DNA from: Thermoplasmata archaeon M9B1D
GTDB taxonomy: Archaea; Thermoplasmatota; E2; DHVEG-1
Assembly: GCA_002900535.1 (NCBI GenBank)
Contig: MUGC01000005.1
Span: 1 to 55,446, forward strand
DNA length: 55,446 nt
Direction of reading: 5' to 3'
The position numbers and the translations under genes are program-made. Positions 5,483 through 46,402 of the stretch are shown in pieces (within the stretch, counting starts at the first letter, position 1; each line of letters opens with the position of its first letter). The notes beneath the pieces were generated by a model, which was not told the DNA's origin, made no database searches, and saw only the letters and a program-made list of their open reading frames with translations.

Positions 5483-5917
5483 TTATTTTTTATTTTTCTC
5501 TGCTTTTTCTATTTCTTTTTTAAGCCATGGTCTAAGATTATCTACCTTAAACAGATTTTTTAATTCTTGTTTAAGATTTGATGGTTTTATTATTATTATC
5601 CAACCTTTATCATAGGGGCTTTTATTTAAAATAGTTGAGTTAAGCTCTAAATCTAAATTAGCCTTAATAATTACTCCAGATATAGGTGACACAAATTTAC
5701 CTATCCATTTTGATGACTGAATTCTTGCACATGTTTCACCTTGAATGACCTCATCATCTTCGAAAGGTAAATCAATATATGTAATTTCATCAGCACTTTT
5801 TAGATAAAAATCATTTATGCCAGCACGAATATTTCCATCAGACTCAATCTTTGCCCATGCATGGTCTTTATGATAGTATAAATCCTCTGGAAAATTATAC
5901 CCTTCAATTATTGTCAT
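5483..5917 (-). CDS. GcvH/LbpA-like lipoyl carrier protein
   Basis: 144 aa. It is colinear with glycine-cleavage H proteins: HAWAK..G..R.GI, and GETCARIQSSKWIGKFVSPISG aligns with [22 protein letters not shown], so the lipoyl-Lys (K70) is conserved. It is the last gene of the hdr operon, 47 nt after hdrA. Confidence 0.8.
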   Translation of the reverse strand: MTIIEGYNFPEDLYYHKDHAWAKIESDGNIRAGINDFYLKSADEITYIDLPFEDDEVIQGETCARIQSSKWIGKFVSPISGVIIKANLDLELNSTILNKSPYDKGWIIIIKPSNLKQELKNLFKVDNLRPWLKKEIEKAEKNKK

Positions 5918-5964
5918 ATGTTATCCTTCCCTTATTTTCTCTAATATTATTTGTTTTTTAAATT

Positions 5965-8900
5965 TTATTTTACTGCTGCATGAATCATTGATGAAATTTG
6001 TTCTCTTTTGAATCCTTTTTGGTCGATAGCATCACAGGGACATGCAACTACACAATTTCCACATCCTTTACATGCTCCTTCAATGATATGGAAAACTCTA
6101 ATTTTTTTACCATTTTTTAGTTTTGTTGTTAATTCTATTGCTTTATATGGGCATGTAGTTAAGCATATACCACACCCACTGCATAAATCCTCATTTATAC
6201 TAGCAATTGGAATATCAATGTAATATTTATTATTTGAAATAATTGTTAATGCTCGAGACACTGCACCATATGACTGAGTTAAAGTTTCACTAATTGATTT
6301 CGGTGAATGTGCTAAACCTGCAAGGAATATACCATCGGTTGCAAAATCAACAGGTCGTAGTTTTACATGAGCCTCTAAAAAGAAATTATCTTCATTTAAC
6401 GGTACCTTCAATTTTTTTGCGAGTTTAACATTATCTTTTAATGGAATGATTGCTGGGCTTAAAACAAGGTAGTCCGCATGTATATTCATTATTTCATTAA
6501 TTATGGGTTCTCTTACAGTAATTTCAAGATCTTTTTTACCTTTTCTAACCTTTGGTTTCTGCTCTTTATTGTATCTTATAAAAATAATTCCTCTTTCTCG
6601 TGCTTTTTCATAATATGTTTCTTTAAATGAATATGTTCTAATATCCCGATATAAGATGAAGATTTCTGCATTAGGATGTAATTCTTTTATTTTCAAAGCG
6701 TTTTTTATGGCATCATTACAACATATTCTACTACAGTATGGTCTTTGATTTTCACGTGATCCTACGCATTGTATCATAACAATAGTTTTTTTATTGAAAT
6801 TATGGTCTCTTACAAGTTTTTTCTCAAGTTCAAGCTGAGTCATTATTCGTTTATCTTCACCATAAAAATACTCATTTGGTTTATATTCTTCAGCGCCTGT
6901 AGCAACAATAATAACGCCATGTTTAACGTTTAGTTTTGCGTTAATATTTTTTAATGTAGTAGAATAACTTCCAACGTAACCTTCGACTCTGTCAATCTTT
7001 GCTTTTTTATAAATTTTAATTTTTGGATGTTTCTCAACTTTTTCTATAATTGATTTCATGAATGCTTGAACATCTTTGTTTTCTAGGGTATAAAAAATTT
7101 TTTTAAGGTTTCCGCCTAGTTCTTTTTCTTTTTCAACTAAAAAGACTTCAAATCCTTGATCTGCAATTGCAAGGGCAGATGTCATCCCTGCCAGTCCCCC
7201 ACCTATAACTAGAGCTTTTTGTATGACATCCAATTGAATAGTTGAAATAGGTTCAAGGCTTAATGCTTTTGAAACAGCCATTCTGATAAGATCCTTTGAC
7301 TTCTGTGTTGCAGCCATAGGGTTATTCATGTGCACCCAAGAACATTGATCACGAATATTAGCCATCTCAAAAAGATGAGGATTTAAACCAGCTTCTTGAA
7401 TAGTAATCTGAAATAAAGATTCGTGTGTTCTTGGAGTGCAAGACGCAACAACTACTCGATTTAACTTTTTTTCTTTGATTTTTTCTATAATTTTTATTTG
7501 AGTGTCATCAGAGCAAGAATAAAGATCCTCTTGAGCATATACAACGTTAGATAGTGTTTCTGCATATTTTACTAATGAAGATACATCGACATAGCCGCCG
7601 ATGTTAATACCGCAACGACAAATAAAAACACCAATTCGTGGAGTTTTATTTTTAACATCGATTTCCTTTGGATACGCACTTTTCTCAATTAAAGTGTTTC
7701 TCTTAGAAGCTATTATGCTACCAGCCTTTGCAGCTGCCGCTGAACCCTCTGTAACTGTTTCAGGGATATCTTTCGGTCCAGAAAAAGAACCACAAACAAA
7801 TATACCGTTTCTTGTAGTATCTATAGGATTAAATTCAGTGGTATTACAAAAACCAAAATCGTTTAGACTTACACCTATTTTATTTGCAATTTCTTTCATT
7901 TTTTTATTAGCAGTAATCCCAACTGAGAGTATGACCATATCAAATTTTTCTTCTTTTAGCCAACCATCCTCAGTCTCATATTTTATCAAAAGGTCTCTAG
8001 TTTTTGACTCTTCATTAATACAAGATATTCTACATCTTATAAATCTGACATTGTAATCTTTTTTTGCTCTGTTATAATATCTTTCGAATCCCTTGCTAAA
8101 AGTCCTCATATCAATAAAGAAGATAGTAGGTTCTATTTTTGGAGTATGCTCTTTAGACATTACCGCCTGCTTAATAGCATATATACAACATACAGATGAA
8201 CAATAGTTGTTACCAAAAACATTATCACGTGAACCTACACATTGAATCCAGGCAATTTTTTTCGGTTCTTTTTCATCAGATGGGCGTACTACACGACCTT
8301 GATATGGGCCAGATGCTGAAAGCATATATTCAAATTCTAATGCATTTAAAACATTTGGAAAACGTTCATAACCATATTCGCTTCTCAGTCTAGCATCAAA
8401 AAGATCATAACCAGTTGCAAGTACAATTGAGCCAACGTTTAACTCAAGTATTTTTTCGTTCATTTCGTGATTGATTGCCTCTGCTTCACAAACCTTTGAG
8501 CACTGCATACACTCTGAACAAATAGAACATGAAAGACACCTCTTTGCTTCCTTTACTGCTTCCTCTTCTGTATAACCAAGGTCAATTTCTCTAAAATCTT
8601 TAATACGTTTTTCAACTAGGAGTTTTTTCATTTGTACCCGTGGTTGATCTTTTCTTCTTTCTCTTAGTTCTTTGATTGTGTTTTCTTTTTTTCCACGCCC
8701 CTTTCGTAAATCCTGGTTTTTTATGTACCTATCAATTGATATCGCACCTTCAATACCATGCCCAATTGCCTCAACAACAGAAGCAGGACCAAAAACAACA
8801 TCCCCACCTGCAAATACACCGGGTATATTGGTTTCAAGTGTGACTTCATCTGCTTTTATAGTTTTTCTTTCAGTTAGCTCTAGTTTTTCAAAACCAGTTA

Positions 8901-10401
8901 AATCTGGTGTTTGCCCTATTGCAATTATTAATGTATCACCGTTGATAATCTGAGCATGGTCACTAGAAAACTTAGGTGAAAAATTACCTTTTTTATCATA
9001 AGAACGTTCACAAACTCTTGTTTCAAGACCAGAAACCTTATTATTTTTAATTCTAATATTAGATGGATTTAAAGACTCATAAATAACAACTCCTTCTTCT
9101 TTAGCATGTCTGATTTCCTCTGCTTTAGCTGGCATTTCTTTTTCTAAACCACGGTAGACAATATAGGATTTTTCCGCCCCGAGACGAAGAGCTGTACGGG
9201 CACAATCAATTGCGACATTTCCCCCGCCAATAGTAATTACTTTCTTGCCAAAGTTCTTAGGTTTTTTACCTTGTTTTACATTTTTTAAAAATTGAATACC
9301 GTAAAAAACATTTTCCGCATTTGAGCCATTGATTTTGAGTCTTGTTGAGTTTTGTGATCCTATAGCTAAAAAGACTGCTTTGTATTGTTTCCTAATTTCA
9401 TTTAATGTAATATCTTTACCAATTTTCACGTTTTTCTGAAATTTAATACCATGATCTAATATTCTGTTAATATCATACATAGCAATTTTACTAGGAATGC
9501 GATAATCAGGCATGCAGCTAGTCATCATACCGCCAGGTTTACTTGAGGCTTCAAATATGGAAACAGGGTATCCCATTTCTGTAAGTTTATATGCACATGT
9601 AAGTCCTGAGGGCCCAGCGCCTATTATAGCAATTTTTTCTTTTTTCTTTGGTTTAATAATTTCTGGAGGTTCTTCTCCATTTTTTATAATATAGTCTGTA
9701 ACAAAACGTTTAAGATTTTTTATTGCAATAGGATCATCTATCTTTGAGCGTAAACATTCGTTCTCACAAGGATGATGACATACACGACCACATACCACTG
9801 GAAAAGGATTATTTTCACGAAGTAAATCCAATGCTTCCTTGAATTTTCTTTTACTTATTAACTCTACATATCCTTGAGCGTTAACCTTTGAAGGACAAGC
9901 TGTTCTACATGGAGATTTACCATCGAGTTTATCGATAGTGTAAACATTTGGAATAGCTTGAGGATACATCTTATAGATTGCGTGTCGTTCTGCTAATTGT
10001 TGATCAAATTGTGAATGTATTGATACTGGACAAACCTGTTCGCATTCTCCACAGCCGTTACATTTATTTATATCTACATAGCTTGGTTTTTTTCTAATTT
10101 TAACTTTAAAATTACCCGCAGAGCCAGATATATCTTGTAAATCAGAATAAGTAATCAGTTCGATATTTGGATGTCTCCCGACGTTAACAAGCTTAGGGGA
10201 CATAATACACATTGAGCATTCATTTGTTGGAAATGTTTTATCAAGTTGAGCCATGACTCCTCCGATAGCTGGTTTTTCTTCTAAAAGAAATGTTTTAAAA
10301 CCAGAGTTAGCAAGGTCAAGAGCAGCTTGCATCCCACCAATACCACCGCCAACTACTAAAACAGAGCCGATCTTTTCATGGGATGATGATTTTTTACTCA
10401 T
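5965..10401 (-). CDS. hdrA: giant HdrA-type flavoprotein: HdrA core 1 with a nested NfnB/GltD-like NAD(P)H module, fused to HdrA core 2
   Basis: 1478 aa.
- aa 12-160 are an HdrA FAD core (VVGGGIGGMQAALDLA, DKTFPTNECSMC, CNGCGECEQVCPV).
- aa ~163-620 are GltD/NfnB-like (CRTACP..NPFPVVCGRVCHHPCENEC, IAIIGAGPSGLTCA, ITIGGGNVAIDCARTALRLGA..YRG..EMPA).
- The sequence then returns to HdrA (CLSCSICSECMQCSKVCEAEAI, IQCVGSRD..YCSSVCCIY).
- aa ~920-1478 are a second HdrA unit with the N-terminal Cys domain (RIGVFICRCGINIG), a GGGLAG FAD core and a C-terminal 2x[4Fe-4S] ferredoxin. Confidence 0.85.
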   Translation of the reverse strand: MSKKSSSHEKIGSVLVVGGGIGGMQAALDLANSGFKTFLLEEKPAIGGVMAQLDKTFPTNECSMCIMSPKLVNVGRHPNIELITYSDLQDISGSAGNFKVKIRKKPSYVDINKCNGCGECEQVCPVSIHSQFDQQLAERHAIYKMYPQAIPNVYTIDKLDGKSPCRTACPSKVNAQGYVELISKRKFKEALDLLRENNPFPVVCGRVCHHPCENECLRSKIDDPIAIKNLKRFVTDYIIKNGEEPPEIIKPKKKEKIAIIGAGPSGLTCAYKLTEMGYPVSIFEASSKPGGMMTSCMPDYRIPSKIAMYDINRILDHGIKFQKNVKIGKDITLNEIRKQYKAVFLAIGSQNSTRLKINGSNAENVFYGIQFLKNVKQGKKPKNFGKKVITIGGGNVAIDCARTALRLGAEKSYIVYRGLEKEMPAKAEEIRHAKEEGVVIYESLNPSNIRIKNNKVSGLETRVCERSYDKKGNFSPKFSSDHAQIINGDTLIIAIGQTPDLTGFEKLELTERKTIKADEVTLETNIPGVFAGGDVVFGPASVVEAIGHGIEGAISIDRYIKNQDLRKGRGKKENTIKELRERRKDQPRVQMKKLLVEKRIKDFREIDLGYTEEEAVKEAKRCLSCSICSECMQCSKVCEAEAINHEMNEKILELNVGSIVLATGYDLFDARLRSEYGYERFPNVLNALEFEYMLSASGPYQGRVVRPSDEKEPKKIAWIQCVGSRDNVFGNNYCSSVCCIYAIKQAVMSKEHTPKIEPTIFFIDMRTFSKGFERYYNRAKKDYNVRFIRCRISCINEESKTRDLLIKYETEDGWLKEEKFDMVILSVGITANKKMKEIANKIGVSLNDFGFCNTTEFNPIDTTRNGIFVCGSFSGPKDIPETVTEGSAAAAKAGSIIASKRNTLIEKSAYPKEIDVKNKTPRIGVFICRCGINIGGYVDVSSLVKYAETLSNVVYAQEDLYSCSDDTQIKIIEKIKEKKLNRVVVASCTPRTHESLFQITIQEAGLNPHLFEMANIRDQCSWVHMNNPMAATQKSKDLIRMAVSKALSLEPISTIQLDVIQKALVIGGGLAGMTSALAIADQGFEVFLVEKEKELGGNLKKIFYTLENKDVQAFMKSIIEKVEKHPKIKIYKKAKIDRVEGYVGSYSTTLKNINAKLNVKHGVIIVATGAEEYKPNEYFYGEDKRIMTQLELEKKLVRDHNFNKKTIVMIQCVGSRENQRPYCSRICCNDAIKNALKIKELHPNAEIFILYRDIRTYSFKETYYEKARERGIIFIRYNKEQKPKVRKGKKDLEITVREPIINEIMNIHADYLVLSPAIIPLKDNVKLAKKLKVPLNEDNFFLEAHVKLRPVDFATDGIFLAGLAHSPKSISETLTQSYGAVSRALTIISNNKYYIDIPIASINEDLCSGCGICLTTCPYKAIELTTKLKNGKKIRVFHIIEGACKGCGNCVVACPCDAIDQKGFKREQISSMIHAAVK

Positions 10402-11279
10402 TTTACTAACTCCAATTTTTCAAGTAAAGCATCGGGTTTGATTTTGTTCATATGAAAACCAAGTTTTTCTTGATTTATACCTAGAGCCAGTCCCAAAACC
10501 TGAGGATAATAAAGCACAGGAAGATTATAATTTACACCATACTTTGCCTCTATCTTTTTCTGATTATCTTCGTACATAATTGAACAAAATGGACAAATTG
10601 TCACAAGGGCATCAACTTTATTTGCTGTAACATTGTCAAGTTTAGGTTTTGCCATTGATAGTGCCATGTCTCCCTCGATTCCTAGTAAAGCACCACCGCA
10701 GCAATCAAGCTTATTTTTATAATCTATTACCTCTGCACCTGTTACTGATACGAGCTCCTCAATTGTAGATGGATTTTCCGCATCTTCAAAATAATCATAC
10801 AAACTACTTGGTCTTAGATAATGACACCCATAATGAATTGATAATCTTAATTTACCAAGATCATTCTTTATTTTGTTTTTTATAAAGTTTAAGCCTATAT
10901 CTTCATATAGTACTCGTGCGAAATGTTTGATTTCTACACCTGGTTTATATGTTCTTCCTATTTTTGCAAGTTCTTTGTTTATTTTTTCACGTAGCTTTCT
11001 ATTGCTCGTAAGCTCTTTGTTTGCTCCGGTTAGAACAGAGGTGCATGCACTACATAAAGTACATATTTTTTCATCTCTGTCAGCAGCAACAGCTAAATTT
11101 CGAGCTGCTATTAATAATGATATTTCAGAATTAATAGATCTGATAGGAAAACCACAACAAGAGAAATCCTCGAGGTTATCAAAATGTATTCCCAATGTTT
11201 TTGCAACTGTTCTTGTTGCCATCTCATAGTTTTGCCCACGAATCGGAATTGTACATCCTAGAAATAATGCATATTTCAC
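10398..11279 (-). CDS. hdrB: heterodisulfide reductase subunit B (two CCG domains)
   Basis: 293 aa. Two CCG-type motifs are present (LGC..SCCGFP..CSAC and GCHY..DCCGG..CPFC). There is a 4-nt overlap with hdrA. Confidence 0.85.
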   Translation of the reverse strand: MKYALFLGCTIPIRGQNYEMATRTVAKTLGIHFDNLEDFSCCGFPIRSINSEISLLIAARNLAVAADRDEKICTLCSACTSVLTGANKELTSNRKLREKINKELAKIGRTYKPGVEIKHFARVLYEDIGLNFIKNKIKNDLGKLRLSIHYGCHYLRPSSLYDYFEDAENPSTIEELVSVTGAEVIDYKNKLDCCGGALLGIEGDMALSMAKPKLDNVTANKVDALVTICPFCSIMYEDNQKKIEAKYGVNYNLPVLYYPQVLGLALGINQEKLGFHMNKIKPDALLEKLELVK

Positions 11280-11764
11280 TAAATCTTCTCCTTTATACGC
11301 ATGTTTTTTAATAGTTTTTTTACTTCTTCAAAAATTTTTTTAATTGGAGGTAATCCTAATTTTTCTCGTTTTTTATTATCAAAATCTTCTATAATGTTCA
11401 ATCGGCCAAATGTACTAATTATTCTTGCTTGTCCCCTAAAAAAAGGGTGAATATATCCTTCTTTTACTGCAATGTTTTTTAATGCCATCATAATTTTTGT
11501 TAATTCTACATTCTGCGGGCAACGATCATCACAGGTACAACATGTTGAACAAAGCCATATAAAATCACTTTTTAAAACTCGATCTCTCATACCTAAGAGT
11601 ATCATTCGAATGATTTTACGAGGGTTGTATGTTTCATCAATTTCACGAACAGGACAGCTTGCTGTACAAGTACCACAGGCAAAGCACTTTGTAATATTTA
11701 TTCCACCTGTTTCTGCGGCTACTTCATATTTAAAATTATGATCTAACTCTTTTGAATCAATCAT
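11279..11764 (-). CDS. hdrC: heterodisulfide reductase subunit C (2x[4Fe-4S])
   Basis: 161 aa. Motifs CFACGTCTASCPV and CSTCCTCDDRCPQ are present. It overlaps both neighbours (1 nt and 4 nt). Confidence 0.8.
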   Translation of the reverse strand: MIDSKELDHNFKYEVAAETGGINITKCFACGTCTASCPVREIDETYNPRKIIRMILLGMRDRVLKSDFIWLCSTCCTCDDRCPQNVELTKIMMALKNIAVKEGYIHPFFRGQARIISTFGRLNIIEDFDNKKREKLGLPPIKKIFEEVKKLLKNMRIKEKI

Positions 11765-12837
11765 ACCTTTTCGGCCTCTATTATAGCGTTGGTAAGATCC
11801 TCAGGTTCAACACCTGGACTTTCAATTTTATGTTTATCGTAATAGTTTTCAATTTTGGAAATTAAGATTTTTTCTTTTCGTTTTGTTTTTATTAAACTGT
11901 TTTCTAATCTATCAAGTTCTGATTTTGGAACTAACTGAAAGTCACCTGAAATATCGATATTTTTAATGAAATTATTTTTTACTTCCTGAGCGGTTCGTAT
12001 CAATCCGCCTCTTGCTTTAGAAGTACCATATAAGATTTCTACGCCTTCACGTATTTTAACTCCTTGAGGGATTCTCGGTGTTTTTTTATATAGGAATTTA
12101 TCAGAGGTAAGCCATTGTTCGAGTTCTATCATTTTATTAATTGTTTCAATAGTCAGATTTACTGGTTTTAATTTACCAGTAATCTTCTCATAATTATTGA
12201 TAAGAGAACAAATAATTTCCTTTCTATCTGGTACATTACCAAGTTCACGTTTCATATTTGTTAGATTTTCCTCCATGGATTTATATATTTTACCTCTAAA
12301 TTTCTCATCAGGTACTCTGAGTATTTTACTCATGGTTTGATAATCAAAATCAATTAGAATACCACCAACAAATACCATGCTTTGACCAATATCGCCACCA
12401 CCTTCACCAGCTATCTTTTGTTCTTTTTTTGTTACAATATCATTTTCTGGTCGAAAATGTGCGTCGATCCCAAAATCCTGATAGGTATCACAGACAGGCT
12501 GTGAAAGGTAAGAAAATATATCTTTTATCCTATTTGGAAAACAGGGATTACCATTACGCCATATTAGTTGATAAAAAATCTGATTTTTATCTAAATAAGT
12601 TGCGCCACCACCAACCTCACGTCGCATAACATAGATGCCTCTTTTTTTACAATATTCTAGATCTACTTCTTTTTCTGCATCTTGAAAATATCCTATTGAT
12701 GCCAAAGGCACTTCAGGGGATACTATCACTAGTCCTTCAAAACCCATCCTTGCTAAAGCATGAAATATAATCATGGATTGTTGACCTGGCAAATAATCTA
12801 GATTAAGAAGCTTCATCACTTTCATTAGCCTCCGCAA
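11761..12837 (-). CDS. lplA: lipoate-protein ligase A-like (catalytic plus C-terminal accessory domain)
   Basis: 358 aa. It has a BPL/LplA/LipB-type core (MRREVGGGATYLDKNQIFY, KIAGEGGG) and an LplA C-terminal domain pattern (DISGDFQLVP..LDRLENSL). It is the first gene of the hdr operon. Confidence 0.7.
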   Translation of the reverse strand: MRRLMKVMKLLNLDYLPGQQSMIIFHALARMGFEGLVIVSPEVPLASIGYFQDAEKEVDLEYCKKRGIYVMRREVGGGATYLDKNQIFYQLIWRNGNPCFPNRIKDIFSYLSQPVCDTYQDFGIDAHFRPENDIVTKKEQKIAGEGGGDIGQSMVFVGGILIDFDYQTMSKILRVPDEKFRGKIYKSMEENLTNMKRELGNVPDRKEIICSLINNYEKITGKLKPVNLTIETINKMIELEQWLTSDKFLYKKTPRIPQGVKIREGVEILYGTSKARGGLIRTAQEVKNNFIKNIDISGDFQLVPKSELDRLENSLIKTKRKEKILISKIENYYDKHKIESPGVEPEDLTNAIIEAEKV

Positions 12838-13012
12838 AGCTATATATGGCTACTGTTTATAAGTATAATATTATCATTAAATGTATTAATATTAATCATT
12901 ATAATTCTAAGATATAGTTTTTATAATAAATTGTTTTCGCTCTAATAACTATACAAATTCAATACATATTTATGAAAATAATATTTTTATTGTAAAAAAT
13001 GATAGATATGAA

Positions 13013-13561
13013 CTATATGTCGCCTCGTTCCAATTTACGTTCTTTAACTATATCTAAAGGTTTTGCTCTTACTGTCTCCTGATATCTCAATACTTCGTCT
13101 ACAGCAACTATAGCACATGCAGATACTTCATTTTTTCCAAGTCCCCCAACAATATCATCAGTAAGAGCCAATATTTCTTCTTTTGAAAGACCTGAATTCA
13201 ACGCATTAATTATACATTTTCTCAATTCTTTTCTTGCTAAACTACAGATACCAAAAGATTTTTTAAGTTTATTCTTAATTTTCTCATTTTCTTGTGGAGA
13301 TAACTTACCTGGCTTCACCTTTCCATATTTATCTTCATGTCTTAAAGCCTGACCAATAGCAGTAATTGAACATAGAGACACGTCTTGTTGATCATAATCT
13401 CTTCCTAACTCATTACTAAATAGCAGAATATCTTCTTTAGTCATACCTGCATTCATGGAATCTATCACACTTTTTCTAAGCTGCCTTCTTCCTAAAGCAC
13501 ATTTTTTAAAACTTTCTGTAATATCTTTTCTTATTTTTTCTAGATTCATATAAACAATCAC
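13013..13561 (-). CDS. hypothetical protein with two internal ~85-aa Cys-containing helical repeats (weakly AhpD/CMD-like)
   Basis: 182 aa. The repeat consensus is C-x2-(G/A)-R-x-(Q/E)-LRK-x6-(N/D)-x-G-(L/I/M)-(T/S)-KE(E/D)-IL ... S-x-C-(A/S)-I-x-A-(I/V). It is a paralog of 13700..14248. Confidence 0.6.
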   Translation of the reverse strand: MIVYMNLEKIRKDITESFKKCALGRRQLRKSVIDSMNAGMTKEDILLFSNELGRDYDQQDVSLCSITAIGQALRHEDKYGKVKPGKLSPQENEKIKNKLKKSFGICSLARKELRKCIINALNSGLSKEEILALTDDIVGGLGKNEVSACAIVAVDEVLRYQETVRAKPLDIVKERKLERGDI

Positions 13562-13699
13562 CCTTACTCAAATACCTTTAGCCAAAGTATCTAAATTTAT
13601 ATCTTTATCAAATCTAATTAGGAAATAATATTATCTTAGGATGAAAACAAGATAATCTTTATTTATGTTTCGATATTAAAAGTACAATTTTTTATTGTT

Positions 13700-14248
13700 T
13701 CATTCTGGGAATTCCATATAAGGCGCATACATTTTTACCATCTTTTTTAATTTATCGAAATCTTCATATTTTAAAACTTCGTCGACTGCGATAATGGCAC
13801 AAACCGAGACCTGGTCTTTTCCGAATCCCCCAACTAGATCATCGCATATAGCAAGTAGTTCTTCTTTTGTCAAACCTGAATTTAATGCATTGGCAACGCA
13901 TTTTCTTAGCTGTCTTCTAGCAAGACCACACTTTTTAAAACATTGTCTAAGCTTATTATAAATTTCAACCTTTTTTTGAGATGCAGGAGGTTCCGGTTTT
14001 ATTTTTTTATTTTCTCCTTCATATTTTAAAGCTTGGCCTATAGCTGTTATTGCACATAATGATGCTTCATCCTTGAAACCTTCTTCTTTCAATTTATTAG
14101 AAATAGCTAATATTTCTTCTTTGGTTATTCCCTTATCCATTGCAGAATCTACATATTTTCTTAGTTGGTTTCTTCCAGCAGCACATTTCCTAAAACAAAC
14201 CTCAAGTTTATCTTTTATTTCTCCTTTATTCAATTGGCCTTTCATCAA
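13700..14248 (-). CDS. hypothetical protein, tandem paralog of 13013..13561 (same double repeat), C-terminal YAPYMEFPE tail
   Basis: 182 aa, with the same length and repeat architecture as its neighbour. The C-terminal motif recurs in the degenerate fragment at 20808..20978. Confidence 0.6.
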   Translation of the reverse strand: MMKGQLNKGEIKDKLEVCFRKCAAGRNQLRKYVDSAMDKGITKEEILAISNKLKEEGFKDEASLCAITAIGQALKYEGENKKIKPEPPASQKKVEIYNKLRQCFKKCGLARRQLRKCVANALNSGLTKEELLAICDDLVGGFGKDQVSVCAIIAVDEVLKYEDFDKLKKMVKMYAPYMEFPE

Positions 14249-14372: not shown

Positions 14373-16142
14373 TTAGATCTTTATCATAGGATAATATCTT
14401 GGAGTCCACATTTTAGATTTTATATCTTCAAGTGAATGCTTAGATGTTCCTCGTTCTTTTGCAATTTCTGTAATTGTTGTAAAAGCAATGTTTGCACTAA
14501 TATTTCGAATTTCGTTTATCGAAGGATAAACAGCGCCTTTACTGATTCTTTTATTTGGTGTCATTTCTGCTAATTTATAAGCTACTTCTGTAAAAACCGC
14601 ATCCGGAATATATTTTCCTTTACTAATAATTGCTCCTAATCCTACACCAGGAAAAATAAAAAAATTATTACATTGACCGATGATAATATTATTACCAGCA
14701 TGCTTAAATGACTCAAAAGGTGACCCTGTTGCAACAATGGCCTTTCCTTTTGTTACTTTATATATATCTTGAGGAGTTGCCTCAGAGTTTGACGTTGGAT
14801 TTGATAGTGGAAAAACAATTGGTCTCGAAGAATTATTATTCATTTCTGTAAGAATTTCTTTGGTGAAATGTCCTGGACGTCCAGATGTTCCAATGAGAAC
14901 AGTTGGTTTGAAATTTTTCACAACCTCTAAAAGTGTTATATTAGAAATATTTTCAACATTCCAATTTTTATAAACATTTTTCTTTTTCATGAATGGCTTT
15001 TTATAATCTTCCAATTCATTTTGATCCGTAACCAAACCTTTGCTATCTATTACAGCTATTTTATCATTAGCCTTTTCTTTTGAAATATGATATTTTAATA
15101 CAAGACATGCTGCTATTCGACGTGCGATACCTATTCCTCCAGCACCAGCACCATATATCACAAATTTTTGATCAACTATCTCCTCTTTTGATAATTTCAG
15201 AGCATTAATTATACCTGCAAGAGCCACAGAACCTGTACCTTGAATATCATCATTAAAACTAAGAATTTTATATCTATATTTATCTAAAATGGTAAATGCA
15301 TTCTGACGGCTGAAATCTTCCCATTGAATCAAAATATCAGGAAATTTTTTCCGTATTCCATCAACAAATTTATCAATAAATTCTTCATATTCTATACCTC
15401 TAAGGCGCCCTTTTTTATATCCCAAGTAATAAGAATCTAGTAAATCAGCAGAATTATCAGTTCCAACATCCAAAGTTAGTGGCATCGTCTCCCAAGGTCT
15501 GATACCTGCTCCTAGTACATATAACGCCAGTTTACCTATTGGGATATCAATTCCACCAACGCCTTGATCACCTAATCCAAGTATACCTTGATTATCTGTT
15601 ACTACAGCAATAGTCGGATGTTTAAATCGAAAATGATTAAATATTTTTTCAACAGATTCAATATTTTTTGGAGAAATAAAAATACCTCTGAAACGTGCTG
15701 AATCACGAGAATACCTGATTACTGCATCCCCAACAGTAGGAGTATAGATAATTGGAATTACCTCCTCTAAGTAACTATGACAAAATGCGTAAAAAAGAAT
15801 CTCATTTCTATCATGAAGATCACGTAAAAAATTAAAACGAGCTAAATCTCCTTCCTTTTTTATTGAGTTTTGTTCTAATTTACCAATTTTATCACAATTA
15901 ATACATATTTTCGAAGGGTTTCCTAGAGTATTATATCTCTGATAAACCTTTTCAACCTGTTGTTCAAGAGTAAGAACTCTTGGGGGAAGAAGACCATCTA
16001 AACCAAATCTTTCCCGTTCATCCTCATTAAATGCTGTACCTTTATTCAAAAGTGGAGCACGAATTATATCATTTCCCGTAGCACTGGTCAAAAACATGAT
16101 ATTTTTGTTTTCATCTTCTTTGATATCAAAATATATCGCCAT
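14373..16142 (-). CDS. NAD(P)-dependent malic enzyme (long, eukaryote-like form)
   Basis: 589 aa. The malic enzyme signature FNDDIQGTGSVALAGIINAL and the dinucleotide fold YGAGAGGIGIA are present. Confidence 0.9.
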   Translation of the reverse strand: MAIYFDIKEDENKNIMFLTSATGNDIIRAPLLNKGTAFNEDERERFGLDGLLPPRVLTLEQQVEKVYQRYNTLGNPSKICINCDKIGKLEQNSIKKEGDLARFNFLRDLHDRNEILFYAFCHSYLEEVIPIIYTPTVGDAVIRYSRDSARFRGIFISPKNIESVEKIFNHFRFKHPTIAVVTDNQGILGLGDQGVGGIDIPIGKLALYVLGAGIRPWETMPLTLDVGTDNSADLLDSYYLGYKKGRLRGIEYEEFIDKFVDGIRKKFPDILIQWEDFSRQNAFTILDKYRYKILSFNDDIQGTGSVALAGIINALKLSKEEIVDQKFVIYGAGAGGIGIARRIAACLVLKYHISKEKANDKIAVIDSKGLVTDQNELEDYKKPFMKKKNVYKNWNVENISNITLLEVVKNFKPTVLIGTSGRPGHFTKEILTEMNNNSSRPIVFPLSNPTSNSEATPQDIYKVTKGKAIVATGSPFESFKHAGNNIIIGQCNNFFIFPGVGLGAIISKGKYIPDAVFTEVAYKLAEMTPNKRISKGAVYPSINEIRNISANIAFTTITEIAKERGTSKHSLEDIKSKMWTPRYYPMIKI

Positions 16143-18776: not shown

Positions 18777-19538
18777 ATGGCTAAGAAACCAAAGATTGGT
18801 GTATTCAAATTAACAGGTTGTGCAGGTTGCCAGATGGAAATATTTCGTATGGAAGATGAATTTTTGGATTTAATAAAATTATTTGATATTAGTTACTGGA
18901 AGATGGCTAAAAGGGATAATGATGATAAAGATTTAGACATTGCTCTAATTGAAGGTGGAATATCAACACCATGGGAAATTGAAGAAATCAAATGTATCAG
19001 AAAAAATACTAAATTTTTAGTTGCATTTGGCGACTGTGCAATTGGTGGTTGTATTCCAAGTATTCGCAATTGGATTCCTCAAATGGAAAGCGAAGAAATT
19101 GTTTATCCCGACCCATCAAAGATATGTTCCACCAAAGTACATGGTATTGGTGAATATGTAAAGGTCGATGCAGAATTAAAAGGATGTCCACCTCATCGAA
19201 AAACAATTCTTGAACTACTCAAATCTGCTCTTTTAAAAATTAGACCAAGACTTAGACAACATCCGGTTTGCGTAGAATGTAAATTTCAAGGTAATGCATG
19301 TTTGATTACCAGTAATAAATTGCCATGTATGGGACCTGTTATTAGTGGCGGTTGTGGTGCAATTTGTCCAACGCTTGGCAGAATATGTGAGGGTTGTTTT
19401 GGTCCAATGAGTAACCCAAACGCTTCTGCTCTTGCAAATATATTTAGGGACATTGGTCTAAATGATGAAGATATAAAACGTAAATTCAGGAAGTACTCAG
19501 GTATGAGCCCAGAATTTAGACTGGAGGCTGGACACTAA
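18777..19538 (+). CDS. hydD: [NiFe] hydrogenase small (delta) subunit, group 3b type
   Basis: 253 aa. It has the N-terminal KLTGCAGCQMEI motif and several distal Cys clusters. There is a 1-nt overlap with the large-subunit ATG. Confidence 0.8.
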   Translation: MAKKPKIGVFKLTGCAGCQMEIFRMEDEFLDLIKLFDISYWKMAKRDNDDKDLDIALIEGGISTPWEIEEIKCIRKNTKFLVAFGDCAIGGCIPSIRNWIPQMESEEIVYPDPSKICSTKVHGIGEYVKVDAELKGCPPHRKTILELLKSALLKIRPRLRQHPVCVECKFQGNACLITSNKLPCMGPVISGGCGAICPTLGRICEGCFGPMSNPNASALANIFRDIGLNDEDIKRKFRKYSGMSPEFRLEAGH

Positions 19539-20802
19539 TGACTGAGAAAACAATTAAAGTTGACTATATCGCACGAGTTGAAGGTCAAGGTGCAATTAGT
19601 ATAGATATAACAAAATATGGTAAAGTTGAAAATTTACAGTTTAAAATATTTGAACCGCCTCGTTTCTTTGAATCTTTTCTTGTTGGAAGAAAATATGATG
19701 AGGTGATGGAGCTTACAAGTAGAATATGTGGTATTTGTCCTGTTGCACATCAAATAACAGCGTTACGTGCTGTTGAAAATGCTATGGGCATAGTTATTAG
19801 CAATCAAACAAGAGATCTTAGAAAGCTTATGGCAATTAGTGCGCGCATATTCAGAGTAATGTTCTCAGCATGTATTTTTTAAGTCTACCTGATCTAATGG
19901 GTTATGAAAGCATTATTGCCATGGTGAAAGATCATTTGGATATTGTTAAAAGAGCTTTAATGCTTAAGAAACTCGGTAATGATATCATACAATTAATTGG
20001 TGGACGATCAGTTCATCCAGTTACAATGATTGTTGATGGTTTTACATCGATTCCTAGTAAAAAAAAGTTTGAAGTTATTAGAAAACGCCTTGTTGACGCC
20101 AAAAAAGTTGCTTTTGAAACCGTTGATATTTTCGCAAATATAAAAATTCCAGATTTCACTCGTAAATGTGAACATGTTGCTATTTCTAATTCTAAAAGTT
20201 ATGCTATAAACGAGGGGCGTTTAAAATCAACTGGAGGAATTGACATCGATGAGACAAACTATCGGGATTATATTTTTGAAAAACAAAAACCGTATTCTAC
20301 TGCTCTGCATAGTTATATTAAAAATCGTGATTCTTTTATGGTTGGACCCTTACCACGGGTTAATCTTAACCTTAAACAGATGTCAGATGATGCAAGAAAT
20401 ACTGCTGGAAATTGTGGTATGAAATTTCCTAATTATAATCCTTTTGTTTCTCATCTTGCAAGAGCAATAGAGCTAGTTCATGATATCGATGAATCCATTG
20501 AAATTATTGAGCGTTTACCACTAAAAGAGGAACATAGTACTCACATGTGCAAATCTGGTTTTGGAGCAGCAATAACTGAAGCCCCACGTGGAAGTCTATA
20601 TCATAGCTACGTTTTAAATAACAATGGAGTTGTCAAAAAAGCAGATATTGTTCCGCCTACTGCTCATAATGCATATAACATTGAAAAAGATATGAATGAG
20701 TTCGTTCAAACAATAATTGATGATCCATTGGATAAAATTACTTTAAAATGTGAAATGCTTGTTAGAGCATATGATCCTTGCATTTCTTGTTCTGCTCACT
20801 AA
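19538..20802 (+). pseudogene. hydA: [NiFe] hydrogenase large (alpha) subunit, group 3b type, split by a frameshift at (GC)3 19841..19846
   Basis: ORF 19538..19882 carries L1 RICGICPVAH. ORF 19870..20802 (-1 frame) carries C-terminal DPCISCSAH. The second frame is already open from 19840 as CAHIQSNVLSMYFLSLPD. 114 plus 310 aa sums to a normal alpha-subunit length. Confidence 0.8.
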
Positions 20803-39010: not shown

Positions 39011-39892
39011 TTATTTTCTATAAACTCCCTTTTTTTTCAATAATAAATTAGGATCAACAGCATGTTGTTCAAATCCACATACTGTTGGATCAAGCCCTAG
39101 TGCAATTGCGATTAGCTGGGTGTAATAATAAACAGGTATTTGTTTGTATCCCCTATGTAGTTTTTCTGCTTCTTTTCCACGTACATCAATGTTGAACCTA
39201 CAAAGCGGGCAAGACAAAACAATAGCATCAGCCCCGCGTTCAAGGGCAAAGTTTGTAATTCTATGAGCACGGTTTGAAACAATTTCCTTATGCTCAACAG
39301 TATGATAAGAACCACAGCATTCAATATTAAATGGATTGTCAACTATATCTGCACCAAGGACCTTTAAAAGATCAGAGAGAATTTGTGGATCTTCTGCATC
39401 ATCAATTGCGACTTCTCTTGGACGAAGCATCATACAACCATAATATGGCATTATTTTCATTCCGCGAAGTGGATTTTTAACCATTTTTTTAAGAGTTTTA
39501 AATCCTACTTCGTCACGTAAAAACTCAAGGAAATGATAAACTGTAACCGTACCCTTGTAATCGTTTTCCTGGTCCATAAACGCATTCAATGTCTCAAGAT
39601 CATCTGCCTTTTCTTTAACACGAAGATTGGTTTGTTTTAGTGTATTGCAACACATATCGCAAAGTGTTAAAACTTTATCTTCACCCTGATCTTCAACATG
39701 AATAAGGCTACGCAGAGGTGCCAAGTGTCGCATTAAATCATCATCTGATAAGGATGACACAACACCGCAACAGGTCCAGTCATCCATTTCAACCATCTCA
39801 TGGCCTAACTTTTCCATTATTGCAAAAGCTGTTTTTTCCAAATTTTTTGCAGATGTCTTAAGTGTACAACCTGGGAAATATAACATTTTCAT
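39011..39892 (-). CDS. hdrB: heterodisulfide reductase subunit B (two CCG domains), copy 2
   Basis: 293 aa. Motifs PGC..TCCG..CDMC and YGC..ECCG..CPLC are present. Confidence 0.85.
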   Translation of the reverse strand: MKMLYFPGCTLKTSAKNLEKTAFAIMEKLGHEMVEMDDWTCCGVVSSLSDDDLMRHLAPLRSLIHVEDQGEDKVLTLCDMCCNTLKQTNLRVKEKADDLETLNAFMDQENDYKGTVTVYHFLEFLRDEVGFKTLKKMVKNPLRGMKIMPYYGCMMLRPREVAIDDAEDPQILSDLLKVLGADIVDNPFNIECCGSYHTVEHKEIVSNRAHRITNFALERGADAIVLSCPLCRFNIDVRGKEAEKLHRGYKQIPVYYYTQLIAIALGLDPTVCGFEQHAVDPNLLLKKKGVYRK

Positions 39893-39897
39893 AGTTA

Positions 39898-40326
39898 TCA
39901 GCCTATGTTTTTTCTAAATAAACTTACAAACGCAATCTGAGGAATTGCCTCTCTTTCCTTTTTTGAGGTTTTTTGAGCATAACTATGATCAATTTTTCTT
40001 CGCAAGATTATTTGACGAAGTGCTTCCATGATTTTTGTGATGTTAATGTCGCGAGGACATCTTTCAGCACAAGTAAAACATGCAGAGCAAAGCCATATGG
40101 TCTTTGAACTCAACACTTCCTGTCGATCAAGAACAACATAACGTATAACTTCATCAGGTGTTAAATCCATATCATCAACATAAGGACAACCCGCAGAACA
40201 TGTTCCACACTGATAACAGCCAAATAAGTTTTCACCACAGATATCTTCAACTTCTTTTACAAGCTCGCCTTTTTTAAAAACAATTTTGCTGATTTCTTTG
40301 TTTTTTGGGAGTTGTTTTCTAGCCAT
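39898..40326 (-). CDS. hdrC: heterodisulfide reductase subunit C, copy 2
   Basis: 142 aa. Motifs CYQCGTCSAGCP and CSACFTCAERCP are present. Confidence 0.8.
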   Translation of the reverse strand: MARKQLPKNKEISKIVFKKGELVKEVEDICGENLFGCYQCGTCSAGCPYVDDMDLTPDEVIRYVVLDRQEVLSSKTIWLCSACFTCAERCPRDINITKIMEALRQIILRRKIDHSYAQKTSKKEREAIPQIAFVSLFRKNIG

Positions 40327-40328
40327 AT

Positions 40329-43300: not shown

Positions 43301-43544
43301 CTTTATCAGCGACATCCAGGGCAGATTGCATACCAGAAATCCCAGCACCAATAATTAGCACATCTGAGTCGATTACCCGTTTTTTCTTTTTAAAAGCCAT
43401 CTGCGTTATACCCTTAACTGTTGTCTCAGGCGAAGGCATTTTGTCTTCTAAAATAGCTAGTTCAGGCTCATCTAAAAAGTAATCATCAGCAAGAGGAATT
43501 CCTTGGTCATGATCTATTTTTTGGTTATATCTTCTTGAGGGCAT
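40329..43544 (-). CDS. hdrA: tandem HdrA-HdrA fusion (two FAD cores with complementary accessory domains)
   Basis: 1071 aa.
- Core 1: [76 protein letters not shown].
- Core 2: [14 protein letters not shown] N-domain, [12 protein letters not shown], no inserted ferredoxin, C-terminal [24 protein letters not shown].
- The start is uncertain, because there is a 20-nt overlap with the upstream gene. Confidence 0.85.
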   Translation of the reverse strand: [1071 protein letters not shown]

Positions 43545-44961: not shown

Positions 44962-46146
44962 TTATTTCACTCCCAGATATTTTAAAAGTTCAACAGGCAG
45001 ATGCATTTCACCGCCTATTTTTGGAGCAACCTCAACTTCACAGTTTCCGCATGCTGCTTCTCTAACTGGATGATAGATTTGGCCAAGGTTCATCTCTGGA
45101 ACAATTATTTTATCAACCTGCTTTGCAAGTTTGGCTACAATTTTCTCAGGAAAGGGCCAAACAATTTTTAATGTTAGAAGCCCTACTTTTTTACCTTTTG
45201 ACCGTGCTATTTCCATAGCTGTTTCAGCAGGACGAGCACTAGCACCATATGTTACAAAAACCGTATCTGCATCATCAAGATTGAATTTTTCAACTTTCAC
45301 AAGTTTATCAGCATCATCCGTAATTTTTTCAGTGATTCTTTTAACAAGTCTTTCATGATCTTTTTGTTTATCAGTTGCTGGAAAACCTTTCTCATTATGA
45401 GTAAGACCTGTAACATATGTATGATACCCTATACCAAATGTTGGAAAATCAGGAACTTTACTACCTTTTACTGTTTGAGAATTTGTAAATGGTATGTATT
45501 TATTTTTTGAAATTGTTGCCTCAACTCTATTAATAAGTTTTAGATCTTTTTCATCTGGAATAACTATTCTTTCACGTAAATGTCCCATCTCACCATCTGT
45601 CATAACACATACAGGATTACGATATTTCTCAGAAAGATTAAATGCTTCAATTGTAAGATCTAGACATTCCTGTACTGTGCTTGGCGCAAATGCTAATGCT
45701 TCAAGATCGCCATGAGTCCCGTAGCGCGCTTGCATCATATCACCCTGGGCACCTAGTGTTGGTTGTCCAGTGCTGGGACCTGTTCTTTGAACATTTACTA
45801 TTACACAAGGTGTTTCAGTCATGACAGCAAAACCATAATTTTCCATCATAAGTGAAAAACCAGGTCCAGATGTCGCAGTCATGGATTTTGCACCACCCCA
45901 AGCAGCACCAATTACTGCAGCAATACTTCCGATCTCATCTTCCATCTGAATATATGTTCCACCAACACGTGGAAGCATTCTTGCCATTCCTTCAGCAACT
46001 TCTGATGCTGGAGTAATCGGATATCCACCAAAAAATGAAACACCAGCGAGTAGACCTCCATAAACACAGGCCATGTCGCCTAGTAGAAACTGGACTTTAT
46101 TTCCTAATACCTCTCTTATCTTTTTAGGATCACGCTTATATACCAT
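44962..46146 (-). CDS. korA: 2-oxoacid:ferredoxin oxidoreductase alpha subunit
   Basis: 394 aa. Motifs GGYPITPASE and TATSGPGFSLM are present. Confidence 0.9.
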   Translation of the reverse strand: MVYKRDPKKIREVLGNKVQFLLGDMACVYGGLLAGVSFFGGYPITPASEVAEGMARMLPRVGGTYIQMEDEIGSIAAVIGAAWGGAKSMTATSGPGFSLMMENYGFAVMTETPCVIVNVQRTGPSTGQPTLGAQGDMMQARYGTHGDLEALAFAPSTVQECLDLTIEAFNLSEKYRNPVCVMTDGEMGHLRERIVIPDEKDLKLINRVEATISKNKYIPFTNSQTVKGSKVPDFPTFGIGYHTYVTGLTHNEKGFPATDKQKDHERLVKRITEKITDDADKLVKVEKFNLDDADTVFVTYGASARPAETAMEIARSKGKKVGLLTLKIVWPFPEKIVAKLAKQVDKIIVPEMNLGQIYHPVREAACGNCEVEVAPKIGGEMHLPVELLKYLGVK

Positions 46147-46147
46147 A

Positions 46148-46402
46148 TTATTTCCTTCCCCCTACCGGTCTTAAAAGAGTTTTTCTACTTTCTTTCTTTT
46201 TATCATCAGTAAATACAGTTATTGCAAGATCTGGACACAATAACTCGCAGAGTCTGCAATAATTGCATTCATTAACCTTCTTGAGCCTTGGTGGGCGCAC
46301 ACCTCTCTTATTCATTTTATCAGATTCTTCTAGTGCATTCACTGGACAACGCTCTATGCAGATCCTGCAACCTTTGCACCAATCTTCATTTACTTCAATC
46401 AT
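46148..46402 (-). CDS. korD: 2-oxoacid:ferredoxin oxidoreductase delta subunit (2x[4Fe-4S] ferredoxin)
   Basis: 84 aa. Motifs CKGCRICIERCP and CNYCRLCELLCP are present. Confidence 0.8.
   Translation of the reverse strand: MIEVNEDWCKGCRICIERCPVNALEESDKMNKRGVRPPRLKKVNECNYCRLCELLCPDLAITVFTDDKKKESRKTLLRPVGGRK

Follow-up and report, generated by a model that had tools for sequence, protein, structure and literature searches.

The window analysed here, 55,446 nt of contig MUGC01000005.1 from Thermoplasmata archaeon M9B1D with a G+C content of ≈33%, carries five co-directional genes, lplA-hdrC-hdrB-hdrA-gcvH, in which a lipoyl carrier protein and a lipoate-protein ligase are encoded together with the three subunits of a heterodisulfide reductase (Hdr) complex (Table 1). 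The list of open reading frames (ORFs) agreed exactly with the arrangement given in a preliminary description of this locus, with overlaps of 4, 1 and 4 nt and a single 47-nt gap, all on the minus strand. The gap lacks a T-run terminator, the carrier gene is followed by a T-rich stretch and, in convergent orientation, a cupin gene, and an AT-rich region precedes lplA, which makes a single operon, transcribed as one unit, the natural reading. The lplA gene probably starts at the ATG at 12825, which has GGAGG in front of it, rather than at the TTG at 12837.

Table 1. Features of the window, with the basis of each assignment.
Feature	Coordinates	Strand	Description	Basis
gcvH-like lipoyl carrier	5483..5917	(-)	144 aa	Pfam GCV_H, AlphaFold2 (AF2) model
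AAA codon of Lys70	5708..5710	(-)	predicted lipoyl attachment site	alignment, sequence read
hdrA-gcvH spacer	5918..5964	(-)	47 nt; GGGAAGGA purine-rich ribosome-binding-like site; no T-run terminator	sequence read
giant hdrA, HdrL-like	5965..10401	(-)	1478 aa	PDB sequence search, BLAST map
second, complete HdrA copy	5965..7638	(-)	aa 922-1478 of HdrA	BLAST to the window's 630-aa HdrA
NfnB/GltD-like insert of HdrA	8491..9930	(-)	aa 158-637 of HdrA; two [4Fe-4S], FAD, NAD(P)H site	Pfam, NCBIfam, PDB matches
hdrB	10398..11279	(-)	293 aa; catalytic subunit, two complete CCG motifs (noncubane [4Fe-4S] disulfide site)	Pfam CCG
hdrC	11279..11764	(-)	161 aa; ferredoxin-like, two [4Fe-4S] motifs	ORF listing, Pfam Fer4_8
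lplA-type lipoate-protein ligase	11761..12837	(-)	358 aa, TTG start	ORF listing, Pfam
AT-rich region 5' of lplA	12838..13012	(-)	175 nt; likely operon promoter	sequence read
two tandem paralogous Cys-containing helical proteins	13013..14248 (13013-13561, 13700-14248)	(-)	182 aa each	AF2 model, alignment
NAD(P)-malic enzyme	14373..16142	(-)		Pfam malic + Malic_M
NiFe hydrogenase large subunit, sulfhydrogenase-like, in two pieces	19538-19882 and 19870-20802	(+)	overlapping, different frames	
second hdrB-hdrC-tandem hdrA set	39011-43544	(-)	adjoins mvhG, mvhA, hycI, mvhD	
hdrA of the second set	40329-43544	(-)	1071 aa, no GltD insert	BLAST to other HdrA genes

The last gene of the operon encodes a protein that matched the Pfam GCV_H family (6e-28). 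Its AF2 model (predicted local distance difference test score 93.7) has the H-protein fold and was matched by Foldseek to the lipoylated E. coli H-protein (3AB9) with template modelling scores of 0.85/0.96 and a root-mean-square deviation (RMSD) of 1.0 Å; an extra helix (aa 129–143) is found at the C-terminus. The conserved lipoyl lysine that had been reported from the sequence is indeed present: ETCARIQSSK70 lines up with the E. coli GcvH sequence that ends in its lipoyl-Lys, and in the model K70 sits at the tip of a hairpin between strands 62–68 and 72–76. Lys70 was unchanged in 30 of 30 aligned subfamily members, as were W71 and K74. By its sequence, the carrier is a separate subfamily rather than a standard GcvH. 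It scored below both NCBIfam equivalog cut-offs for housekeeping GcvH (TIGR00527, 93.7 versus 115.85; NF002270, 104 versus 117), and where true H-proteins have a near-invariant ESVKAxSDxY, the subfamily has C-G-K-I-Q-S-x-K-W-x-G-K-x-V-x-P. The subfamily comprises >230 close homologues of 143–146 aa, and 432 carrier stretches were confirmed in Joint Genome Institute (JGI) metagenomes. Its nearest relatives, with the same signature and 45–51% identity, are found in Desulfobacteraceae and other deltaproteobacterial metagenome-assembled genomes. A profile-free scan of 1.84 billion representatives placed a broader ESxKWxG group of H-like proteins beside the canonical ESVKA proteins.

The other single-domain lipoyl protein known to accompany Hdr-like subunits, LbpA, has a conserved lipoyl-Lys and two conserved Cys, one toward each terminus, and the published LbpA tree lacks resolution at depth (PMC6067878). 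We set the carrier apart from LbpA by curated cut-offs, motifs and this Cys hallmark. The only Cys of the carrier is C63, and a terminal Cys is absent throughout the aligned subfamily. By the hallmark as published, the carrier would thus not be an LbpA, although the criterion is not absolute, since some archaeal LbpAs also lack the Cys.

The first gene encodes an LplA-type ligase and, as previously described, retains the C-terminal accessory domain (Pfam LplA-B_cat, 1.3e-34; Lip_prot_lig_C, 2e-5, 24.8 bits with a cut-off of 24). It contains a KIAG motif with the adenylate-binding Lys at aa 141, and scored below the NCBIfam cut-offs for lipoyltrans (134.9 versus 280) and LplB (49.1 versus 65). 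The 4-nt overlap couples lplA translationally to hdrC. HdrC has CxxCxxCxxxC motifs at aa 27 and 72. Both CCG motifs of HdrB are kept, in agreement with the earlier reading (C9, C41C42G, C73xxC76 and C152, C193C194G, C229xxC232), and the subunit is collinear over 289 aa with the methanogen HdrB structures 9SFI_C (2e-67) and 5ODC_B (4e-63). All three Hdr subunits fell below the NCBIfam equivalog cut-offs for the coenzyme B (CoB)–coenzyme M (CoM) reductase: HdrC scored 122.3 against 160 (TIGR03290), HdrB 272.7 against 345 (TIGR03288), and HdrA 1004.8 against 1100 (HdrA2) and 762 against 1400.

The giant HdrA proved to be of the bifurcation type with an NAD(P)H module, as had been proposed. It matched methanogen HdrA (5ODC_A) at 1e-202 in four stretches, but the short sHdrA (6TJR_A) at only 5e-38, and contains the Pfam domains Pyr_redox_2, Fer4_20, FAD_oxidored and Fer4. 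Residues 11–157 and 628–901 constitute one HdrA flavin domain, which is split by the insert. The insert matched the NfnB-type structures 4YLF_B (1e-88) and 5JCA_L (5e-82); Fer4_20 and Pyr_redox_2 cover aa 162–549, with a GxGxxG motif at aa 261, and the match to the NCBIfam NAD(P)-binding family PRK12771 reached 566 bits, above the cut-off of 516. In the second copy, aa 922–1232 correspond to residues 2–314 of the window's 630-aa HdrA and aa 1157–1477 to residues 323–622. This copy consists of an N-terminal Cys domain, an FAD domain with GxGxxG at aa 1067, and a C-terminal 2×[4Fe-4S] ferredoxin domain with CxxCxxCxxxC motifs at aa 1407 and 1444. By its predicted layout, the giant HdrA is the HdrL idea arranged as a tandem pseudo-dimer.

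All window ORFs of at least 100 aa, except those inside a longer annotated gene on the opposite strand, were identified by Pfam, and the 1071-aa hdrA was named through BLAST to other HdrA genes. No gcvT, gcvP or lpd was found among them, as had been claimed for the whole 55 kb, and no E2 either. tblastn searches of the window gave no match to a second gcvH, a second lplA, OsmC, DsrE or TusA; rhodanese is missing from the window as well, and Pfam detected no sulfur transferases there. Scans of the window for tRNAs and Rfam families also gave no match.

We collected 112 related loci (given as L numbers below), which were annotated by BLAST against a reference set with Pfam assignments. Clustering of the carriers at 90% identity yielded 59 lineages, 40 of which had at least 1.5 kb of upstream sequence and could be assessed. 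The neighbourhood turned out to be strongly conserved. In 26 of the 40 lineages, the carrier gene directly follows an Hdr, MvhD, NiFe-hydrogenase or OsmC gene of the same strand, and two more have such a gene, not adjacent, within three genes upstream (28 together). The remainder have the carrier behind sucCD (four lineages), behind lipoate-assembly genes (two) or in other contexts (six). Across the 40 neighbourhoods, HdrA was present in 30, OsmC in 19, HdrB in 15 and LplA in 13.

This link persists over at least six operon architectures. The order in the window, malic-unk-unk-lplA-hdrC-hdrB-hdrA-gcvH, is shared with L001, L038 and L048. L005–L007 and L064 have malic-hdrD-like-lplA-hdrC-hdrB-osmC-hdrA-mvhD-gcvH, and L052 has glcD-hdrD-lplA-hdrC-hdrB-hdrA-gcvH. 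Other arrangements are hdrB-hdrA-mvhD-hdrA-osmC-gcvH (L030, L056), hdrA-hdrA-frhB-like x2-mvhD-hydBGDA-hycI-osmC-gcvH (L013, L055, L066), dsrE-tusA-mvhD-hdrA-hdrA-...-osmC-gcvH (L031, L086) and hdrC-hdrB-hdrA-gcvH-glcD-hdrD (L094, L107, L108); the order gcvH-glcD-hdrD also occurs in L100. The order lplA-hdrC-hdrB is repeated in L001, L005, L038, L048, L052 and L112. Chance is a poor explanation for the operon-terminal place of the carrier across these architectures, even in Hdr-rich genomes. GcvT, GcvP, Lpd and E2 were found neither in the 11 related loci with precomputed Pfam assignments nor among the recurrent unlabelled neighbours that were scanned.

A block of seven genes, comprising the five-gene operon and the two 182-aa genes upstream of it, is present at 479227–488476 of the closed 3.34-Mb Lokiarchaeota genome CP070831.1 (L112), which is Lokiarchaeota bin108 (PMC10833476). 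There, too, hdrA encodes 1478 aa and gcvH 144 aa. LplA, HdrC, HdrB and HdrA are 72–77% identical to those of the window, and the carrier and the 182-aa proteins 62–65%, whereas the flanking phosphoenolpyruvate carboxykinase (PEPCK) is only 50% identical. The block therefore appears to travel as a unit between phyla, and the comparison suggests whole-block transfer between Thermoplasmatota and Lokiarchaeota.

The sister loci also point to what the carrier may be used for. In 19 of the 40 lineages, an OsmC-family protein (PF02566) is encoded just upstream of the carrier, and these proteins have two invariant Cys. Ohr/OsmC proteins are lipoyl-dependent peroxidases that are reduced via protein-bound lipoyl (PMC5384416). 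The preliminary description had overlooked this recurrent in-operon OsmC, which suggests that the system runs in the reductase direction with an antioxidant sink; in the sister lineages, the peroxidase is the likely consumer of the reduced carrier. In the archaeal loci L015, L056, L067 and L102, clusters of the type LplA-LipT-like FAD protein-radical SAM-radical SAM-(OsmC)-gcvH match the sLpl(AB)-LipS1/S2-LipT pathway (PMC10332631). Because of this context of OsmC and LplA-LipT-radical-SAM lipoate-assembly genes, the carrier is very probably lipoylated, and in some genomes its role may be limited to lipoate assembly.

Anaerobes other than methanogens are rich in HdrABC-type genes, among them Asgard archaea, Thermoplasmatota of the MBG-D type, Bathyarchaeia, Chloroflexota and sulfate reducers, and these genes appear in metabolic models, including models of the archaeal ancestor of eukaryotes. 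Synthesis of CoM or CoB is not known from these organisms. For the thiol/disulfide substrate of their HdrABC, the cluster described here provides a concrete, clonable candidate, a 144-aa lipoyl protein that is encoded with its ligase, HdrC, HdrB and an HdrA linked to NAD(P)H. In our proposal, the operon provides a cytoplasmic complex of the HdrABC type, the protein on which it acts and the enzyme by which this protein is activated. LplA, as indicated by its domain content and the invariant lysine of the carrier, would load lipoate or octanoate onto Lys70. The swinging lipoyl arm would then serve as the dithiol/disulfide couple at the two noncubane clusters of HdrB, replacing CoM-S-S-CoB. By analogy with 5ODC and the Nfn structures, electrons would pass through HdrC to the tandem HdrA, where the NfnB/GltD insert would exchange hydride with NAD(P)H, and the flavin and ferredoxin domains of HdrA single electrons with ferredoxin. 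The carrier would probably be kept reduced as a thiol reductant, e.g., for lipoyl-dependent peroxide reduction, in likeness to the Trichomonas OsmC/H-protein/L-protein system as it is summarised in the literature, with Hdr standing in for the L protein. We give about even odds to a direct redox partnership between the lipoyl carrier and HdrB. The complex as a whole would be an NAD(P)H/ferredoxin-linked, Lpd-independent lipoyl-protein reductase/oxidase.

The redox potentials constrain how such a complex could work. Lipoyl/dihydrolipoyl has a potential of ≈-290 mV, compared to ≈-140 mV for CoM-S-S-CoB, -320 mV for NAD(P)H, -414 mV for H2 and ≈-450 to -500 mV for ferredoxin. A simple swap of lipoyl into the methanogen bifurcation scheme with NAD(P)H would consequently fail energetically: NADH-driven bifurcation to ferredoxin and lipoyl is uphill. 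Given this potential of lipoyl/dihydrolipoyl, only an Nfn-like coupling, 2 NADPH <-> reduced ferredoxin + dihydrolipoyl-protein, would make energetic sense. This reaction is energetically equal to that of Nfn, whose bifurcating subunit is of the same type as the inserted module.

If the partnership is real, the unusual association of Hdr with lipoate is not confined to aerobic sulfur oxidisers but extends into the energy and redox metabolism of anaerobes, defines an Lpd-independent, ferredoxin-coupled route to reduced lipoyl proteins, and explains the orphan H-proteins of anaerobes. A wider version, which we advance only tentatively and consider doubtful, is that protein-bound lipoyl is the general dithiol/disulfide couple of bifurcating HdrABC in anaerobic archaea that are not methanogens, sediment Thermoplasmatota and Lokiarchaeota among them, in the role that CoM-S-S-CoB has in methanogens. 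One mobile lipoyl pool would then connect NAD(P)H, ferredoxin, H2, lactate/malate dehydrogenases (via HdrD-like proteins) and OsmC peroxidases.

Several observations weigh against lipoyl as the partner of HdrB. The low potential of lipoyl takes away the large driving force of the methanogen enzyme. The carrier-linked HdrB is nearer to methanogen HdrB (2e-67) than is the Mvh-linked HdrB of the window (1e-38), which fits a small-molecule heterodisulfide too. OsmC, the likely consumer in sister lineages, is not encoded in the window itself, and the hydrogenase- or HdrA-linked loci L013, L031 and L055 lack an HdrB/CCG gene within 10 kb. The genomes are rich in Hdr paralogues (the window alone has five HdrA-like genes), and the region behaves like a shuffled redox island, in which neighbour counts are inflated. 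Furthermore, the carrier has another position in 12 of the 40 lineages, where it follows sucCD, stands on its own next to fumarase or comes after genes of the LplA-LipT-radical-SAM type; an adjacent hdr gene is lacking in about one third of the lineages and in all bacterial relatives. Finally, fused GcvH-fold domains, described below, lack the lipoyl lysine.

Some of these points would be accounted for if the carrier and LplA were a general lipoate-assembly hub within a conserved redox island, and Hdr used a different thiol/disulfide. GcvH would in that case act as primary acceptor, in the manner of the Bacillus relay, and as a scaffold for LipS1/S2-type sulfur insertion. The subfamily members of 12 Desulfobacteraceae and other deltaproteobacterial genomes lie in gcvH-lplA-radical-SAM clusters with no hdr nearby, from which the carrier could be just the cell's assembly hub, and the archaeal LplA-LipT-radical-SAM clusters described above, as well as the dozen lineages with no Hdr-type gene directly upstream, point the same way. 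However, a hub needs clients, and E2, GcvT and GcvP were seen in no examined locus. Translational coupling ties lplA to hdrC, not to the carrier, while the carrier stays operon-terminal behind Hdr, MvhD, hydrogenase or OsmC genes despite many rearrangements, and GcvH-fold domains are found fused to HdrC and HdrD. We consider a pure hub unlikely.

The carrier could also be a housekeeping H-protein whose T and P genes lie elsewhere, with Hdr as a ferredoxin-coupled replacement of Lpd that re-oxidises dihydrolipoyl-H during amino-acid fermentation. Archaea of this type are thought to be protein degraders, lpd is missing from the window, and the fold is within 1.0 Å RMSD of E. coli H-protein; the relatives are in fact labelled GcvH by NCBI annotators. 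The reaction dihydrolipoyl + reduced ferredoxin -> 2 NAD(P)H would be energetically favourable, and the reductive glycine direction can be included here. What makes this improbable is that the carrier falls short of both GcvH cut-offs, that QSxKWxGK has replaced ESVKAxSDxY throughout the subfamily, that neither gcvT nor gcvP adjoins the carrier in any examined locus, and that the pairing with OsmC indicates a reductant role.

Quite improbable, in our view, is a reductive, anaerobic counterpart of the sHdr-LbpA system, in which the lipoyl arm carries or reduces sulfane sulfur from sulfur transferases and Hdr moves the electrons. The frequent sulfhydrogenase-like NiFe hydrogenase neighbours would fit such a role, but the HdrA is not of the sHdrA type, the carrier lacks the two conserved Cys attributed to LbpA in the published description (PMC6067878), and sulfur transferases are rare. 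Their absence, stated in the preliminary description, holds for the window, where both tblastn and Pfam were negative, but not for the sister loci L031 and L086, which have DsrE and TusA, or L029, which has DsrE; TusA was counted in two and DsrE in one of the 40 lineages. We consider it highly improbable that HdrB acts on the 182-aa Cys protein pair as its actual protein disulfide, by analogy with DsrC and DsrK, with the carrier as a mere accessory: the pair is conserved directly 5' of lplA in operons of the window type, Lokiarchaeota included, has four invariant Cys and matches no known fold or family, but it is limited to that architecture (≈5 of 40 lineages), is separated from lplA by 175 nt, and is tied to thiol chemistry only by its conserved Cys.

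The DsrE/TusA genes themselves (L031, 2651–3255; L029, 4975–5573; also L086, L073 and L081) are co-operonic with MvhD and two HdrA-like genes. The same operons hold two FrhB-like genes, OsmC and the GcvH-like carrier, with a group-4-like hydrogenase module upstream, which hints at a sulfur-linked variant of the carrier-Hdr system.

A lipoyl protein presumed to work with Hdr-like CCG subunits has a precedent in the sHdr-LbpA systems (PMC6067878, PMC11094781), which are found in Hyphomicrobium denitrificans, Aquifex and Sulfolobales (PMC6067878, PMC10332631, PMC11094781). As in those systems, a GcvH-homologous single-domain lipoyl protein and a dedicated ligase are encoded with CCG and Fe-S subunits, and related carrier loci also hold assembly genes of the LipS1/S2-LipT type. 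The sHdr core is organised as shdrC1B1AHC2B2 (type I) or shdrC1B1AHB3-etfAB-emo (type II) (PMC11094781). In contrast, the operon described here has one hdrC, one hdrB and one hdrA, and no sHdrH, C2B2, B3, etf or emo. Its HdrA is built on the 650-aa bifurcating methanogen type, duplicated and with the NfnB insert, and its hosts are anaerobic sediment archaea rather than sulfur oxidisers. Judged from its genes, the cluster would work like sHdr-LbpA, but is not a member of that group.

The resemblance to the methanogen MvhAGD-HdrABC complex (PDB 5ODC, 8RVU, 9SFI) is closer at the level of the subunits. HdrB is ≈40% identical, HdrC and HdrA are clear homologues, and the whole motif set is found: two CX31-39CCX35-36CXXC in HdrB, two [4Fe-4S] in HdrC, and the FAD and Fe-S domains of HdrA. 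Sister loci add MvhD and NiFe hydrogenase genes. Differences are the tandem fusion of HdrA with an NAD(P)H module, the presence of a lipoyl carrier and ligase in the operon, the sub-threshold equivalog scores, and the absence from the window of mcr and of genes for CoM or CoB biosynthesis. The closest parallel to the giant HdrA is HdrL of Desulfobacterium autotrophicum, a fusion of heterodisulfide reductase with glutamate synthase for which a link between NAD(P)H and Hdr chemistry has been proposed (PMC2702500). Both are large and have a GltD-type NAD(P)H module. The HdrL genes are followed by mvhD and lie beside dsr or fdh genes, without HdrBC, carrier or ligase (PMC2702500), whereas hdrA in the window is followed by the gcvH-like gene; mvhD does follow hdrA in L005–L007 and L064. 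The insert also relates the complex to NfnAB/NfnSL (PDB 4YLF/4YRY, 5JCA), being homologous to NfnB (1e-88), and the proposed energetics copy those of Nfn, from NADPH to ferredoxin and an acceptor at ≈-290 mV. NfnA, however, is absent, and a lipoyl disulfide on a protein, accessible via HdrC and HdrB, would be the partner at mid-potential instead of NAD+ on NfnA.

An orphan H-protein in an anaerobe is not without parallel. Hydrogenosomes of T. vaginalis contain OsmC with orphan H and L proteins but without P and T (Nyvltova 2016, as cited in PMC7946386), and the two-Cys OsmC of the sister lineages is paired with the carrier in a similar way, as far as that secondary account allows a comparison. 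Here, the reductase would be an Hdr/hydrogenase complex rather than an NADH-dependent Lpd, and the OsmC is missing from the window. A GcvH for HdrB has also been suggested before. The preliminary description considered sHdr-LbpA the only described link between Hdr and lipoate, but this does not hold entirely: in the Ehe-HdrA2B2C2-GcvH cluster of Culexarchaeia, the GcvH encoded beside HdrA2B2C2 has been suggested as a possible carrier of the HdrB disulfide (Kohtz et al. 2022, PMC9723716), so that the idea of a GcvH disulfide for HdrB in a non-methanogen was already voiced in 2022. Both cases place a GcvH gene beside bifurcating-type Hdr genes in a non-methanogenic archaeon. The Culexarchaeia belong to another phylum and have another gene set, with a membrane-bound group-4 hydrogenase, SdhA and CdhA, and the report includes neither a ligase in the cluster nor a survey of conservation (PMC9723716). 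Our literature search, which included papers on Thermoprofundales and Thermoplasmatota, found no description of the present operon or carrier subfamily.

GcvH-fold and Hdr domains also occur within single polypeptides. The best match in the representative library, P0121 (1391 aa), contains three GcvH folds, a GlcD-like FAD domain, Fer4_8 and two CCG domains, an order that mirrors the gene order gcvH-glcD-hdrD. P0218 (L113, 2608–5549) joins a receiver domain and a GcvH fold to an HdrC with 62% identity to that of the window, and is followed by hdrB and an hdrA-like gene. The fusions connect the H-protein fold physically with an HdrC/CCG module of precisely this type. In the alignment, however, the fused domains of both P0121 and P0218 lack the lipoyl lysine; the fusions therefore support docking rather than lipoyl chemistry. 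A histidine kinase gene is found beside the fused, lysine-less GcvH-fold/receiver/HdrC genes, with hdrB and hdrA, and the P0121/P0218 type has the appearance of an Hdr-attached H-fold module that is under phospho-regulation and not lipoylated.

Two further groups of GcvH-like proteins were encountered. P0164, P0187, P0200 and ≈40 more representatives of 540–580 aa have a Lys-containing GcvH domain at ≈375–510, preceded by an N-terminal region of ≈370 aa with no Pfam match. P0125 (160 aa) has Ala at the position of the lipoyl-Lys, an N-terminal Cys and a C-terminal SAGCG tail, which resembles the SoxY-like Cys described for LbpA.

The 182-aa genes are found directly 5' of lplA in L001, L032, L038, L043, L048 and L112 as well. 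Each protein is an internal duplication with invariant C22, C65, C107 and C150, and the AF2 model is all-helical (predicted local distance difference test score 84.8). We considered AhpD-like lipoyl adaptors, but searches of Pfam and NCBIfam returned no family and the PDB no fold match, and this assignment was dropped. The proteins may belong to the system, either as a partner whose Cys serve in redox reactions or metal binding, or as a regulator. The malic enzyme upstream of them is a plausible source of NAD(P)H for the complex. A malic enzyme also lies upstream of the operon in L001 and L032, and in L005–L007 and L064 this position is taken by a non-orthologous one (26% identity) whose gene overlaps the first operon gene. 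Since fumarase, malic enzyme and FAD_binding_2 genes are among the neighbours, a Tfr-like thiol:fumarate reductase was considered as a consumer, but is not supported, because the window's flavoprotein partner (48061–48825) has no CCG domain.

Elsewhere in the window, the HdrB of the second, Mvh-linked Hdr set (Table 1) is 28% identical to the carrier-linked HdrB. Other redox genes include two more HdrA-like genes, a sulfhydrogenase-like NiFe hydrogenase, a GlcD-like flavoprotein, 2-oxoacid:ferredoxin oxidoreductase, succinyl-CoA synthetase and rubrerythrin. The flanking LarA, acyl-CoA dehydrogenase, PEPCK and malic enzyme are 75–81% identical to genes on contigs assigned by their NCBI submitters to Thermoplasmatales or Thermoplasmata archaea, several of which are from cold-seep or estuary sediment, and the host is probably an uncultured Thermoplasmatota archaeon that lives in anaerobic sediment. 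In L042, L050, L054, L057, L088 and L091, the carrier follows sucC-sucD, sometimes with a 140-aa ORF in between, in a block that otherwise equals 44962–52222 of the window (POR-hdrA-FAD_binding_2-Fer4-regulator-sucCD); a serpin gene in the window stands where those lineages have the carrier. The large-subunit gene of the sulfhydrogenase-like hydrogenase is split in the window (Table 1), whereas its relatives have a single intact gene of 414–437 aa, and the split represents a frameshift, a pseudogene or an assembly error.

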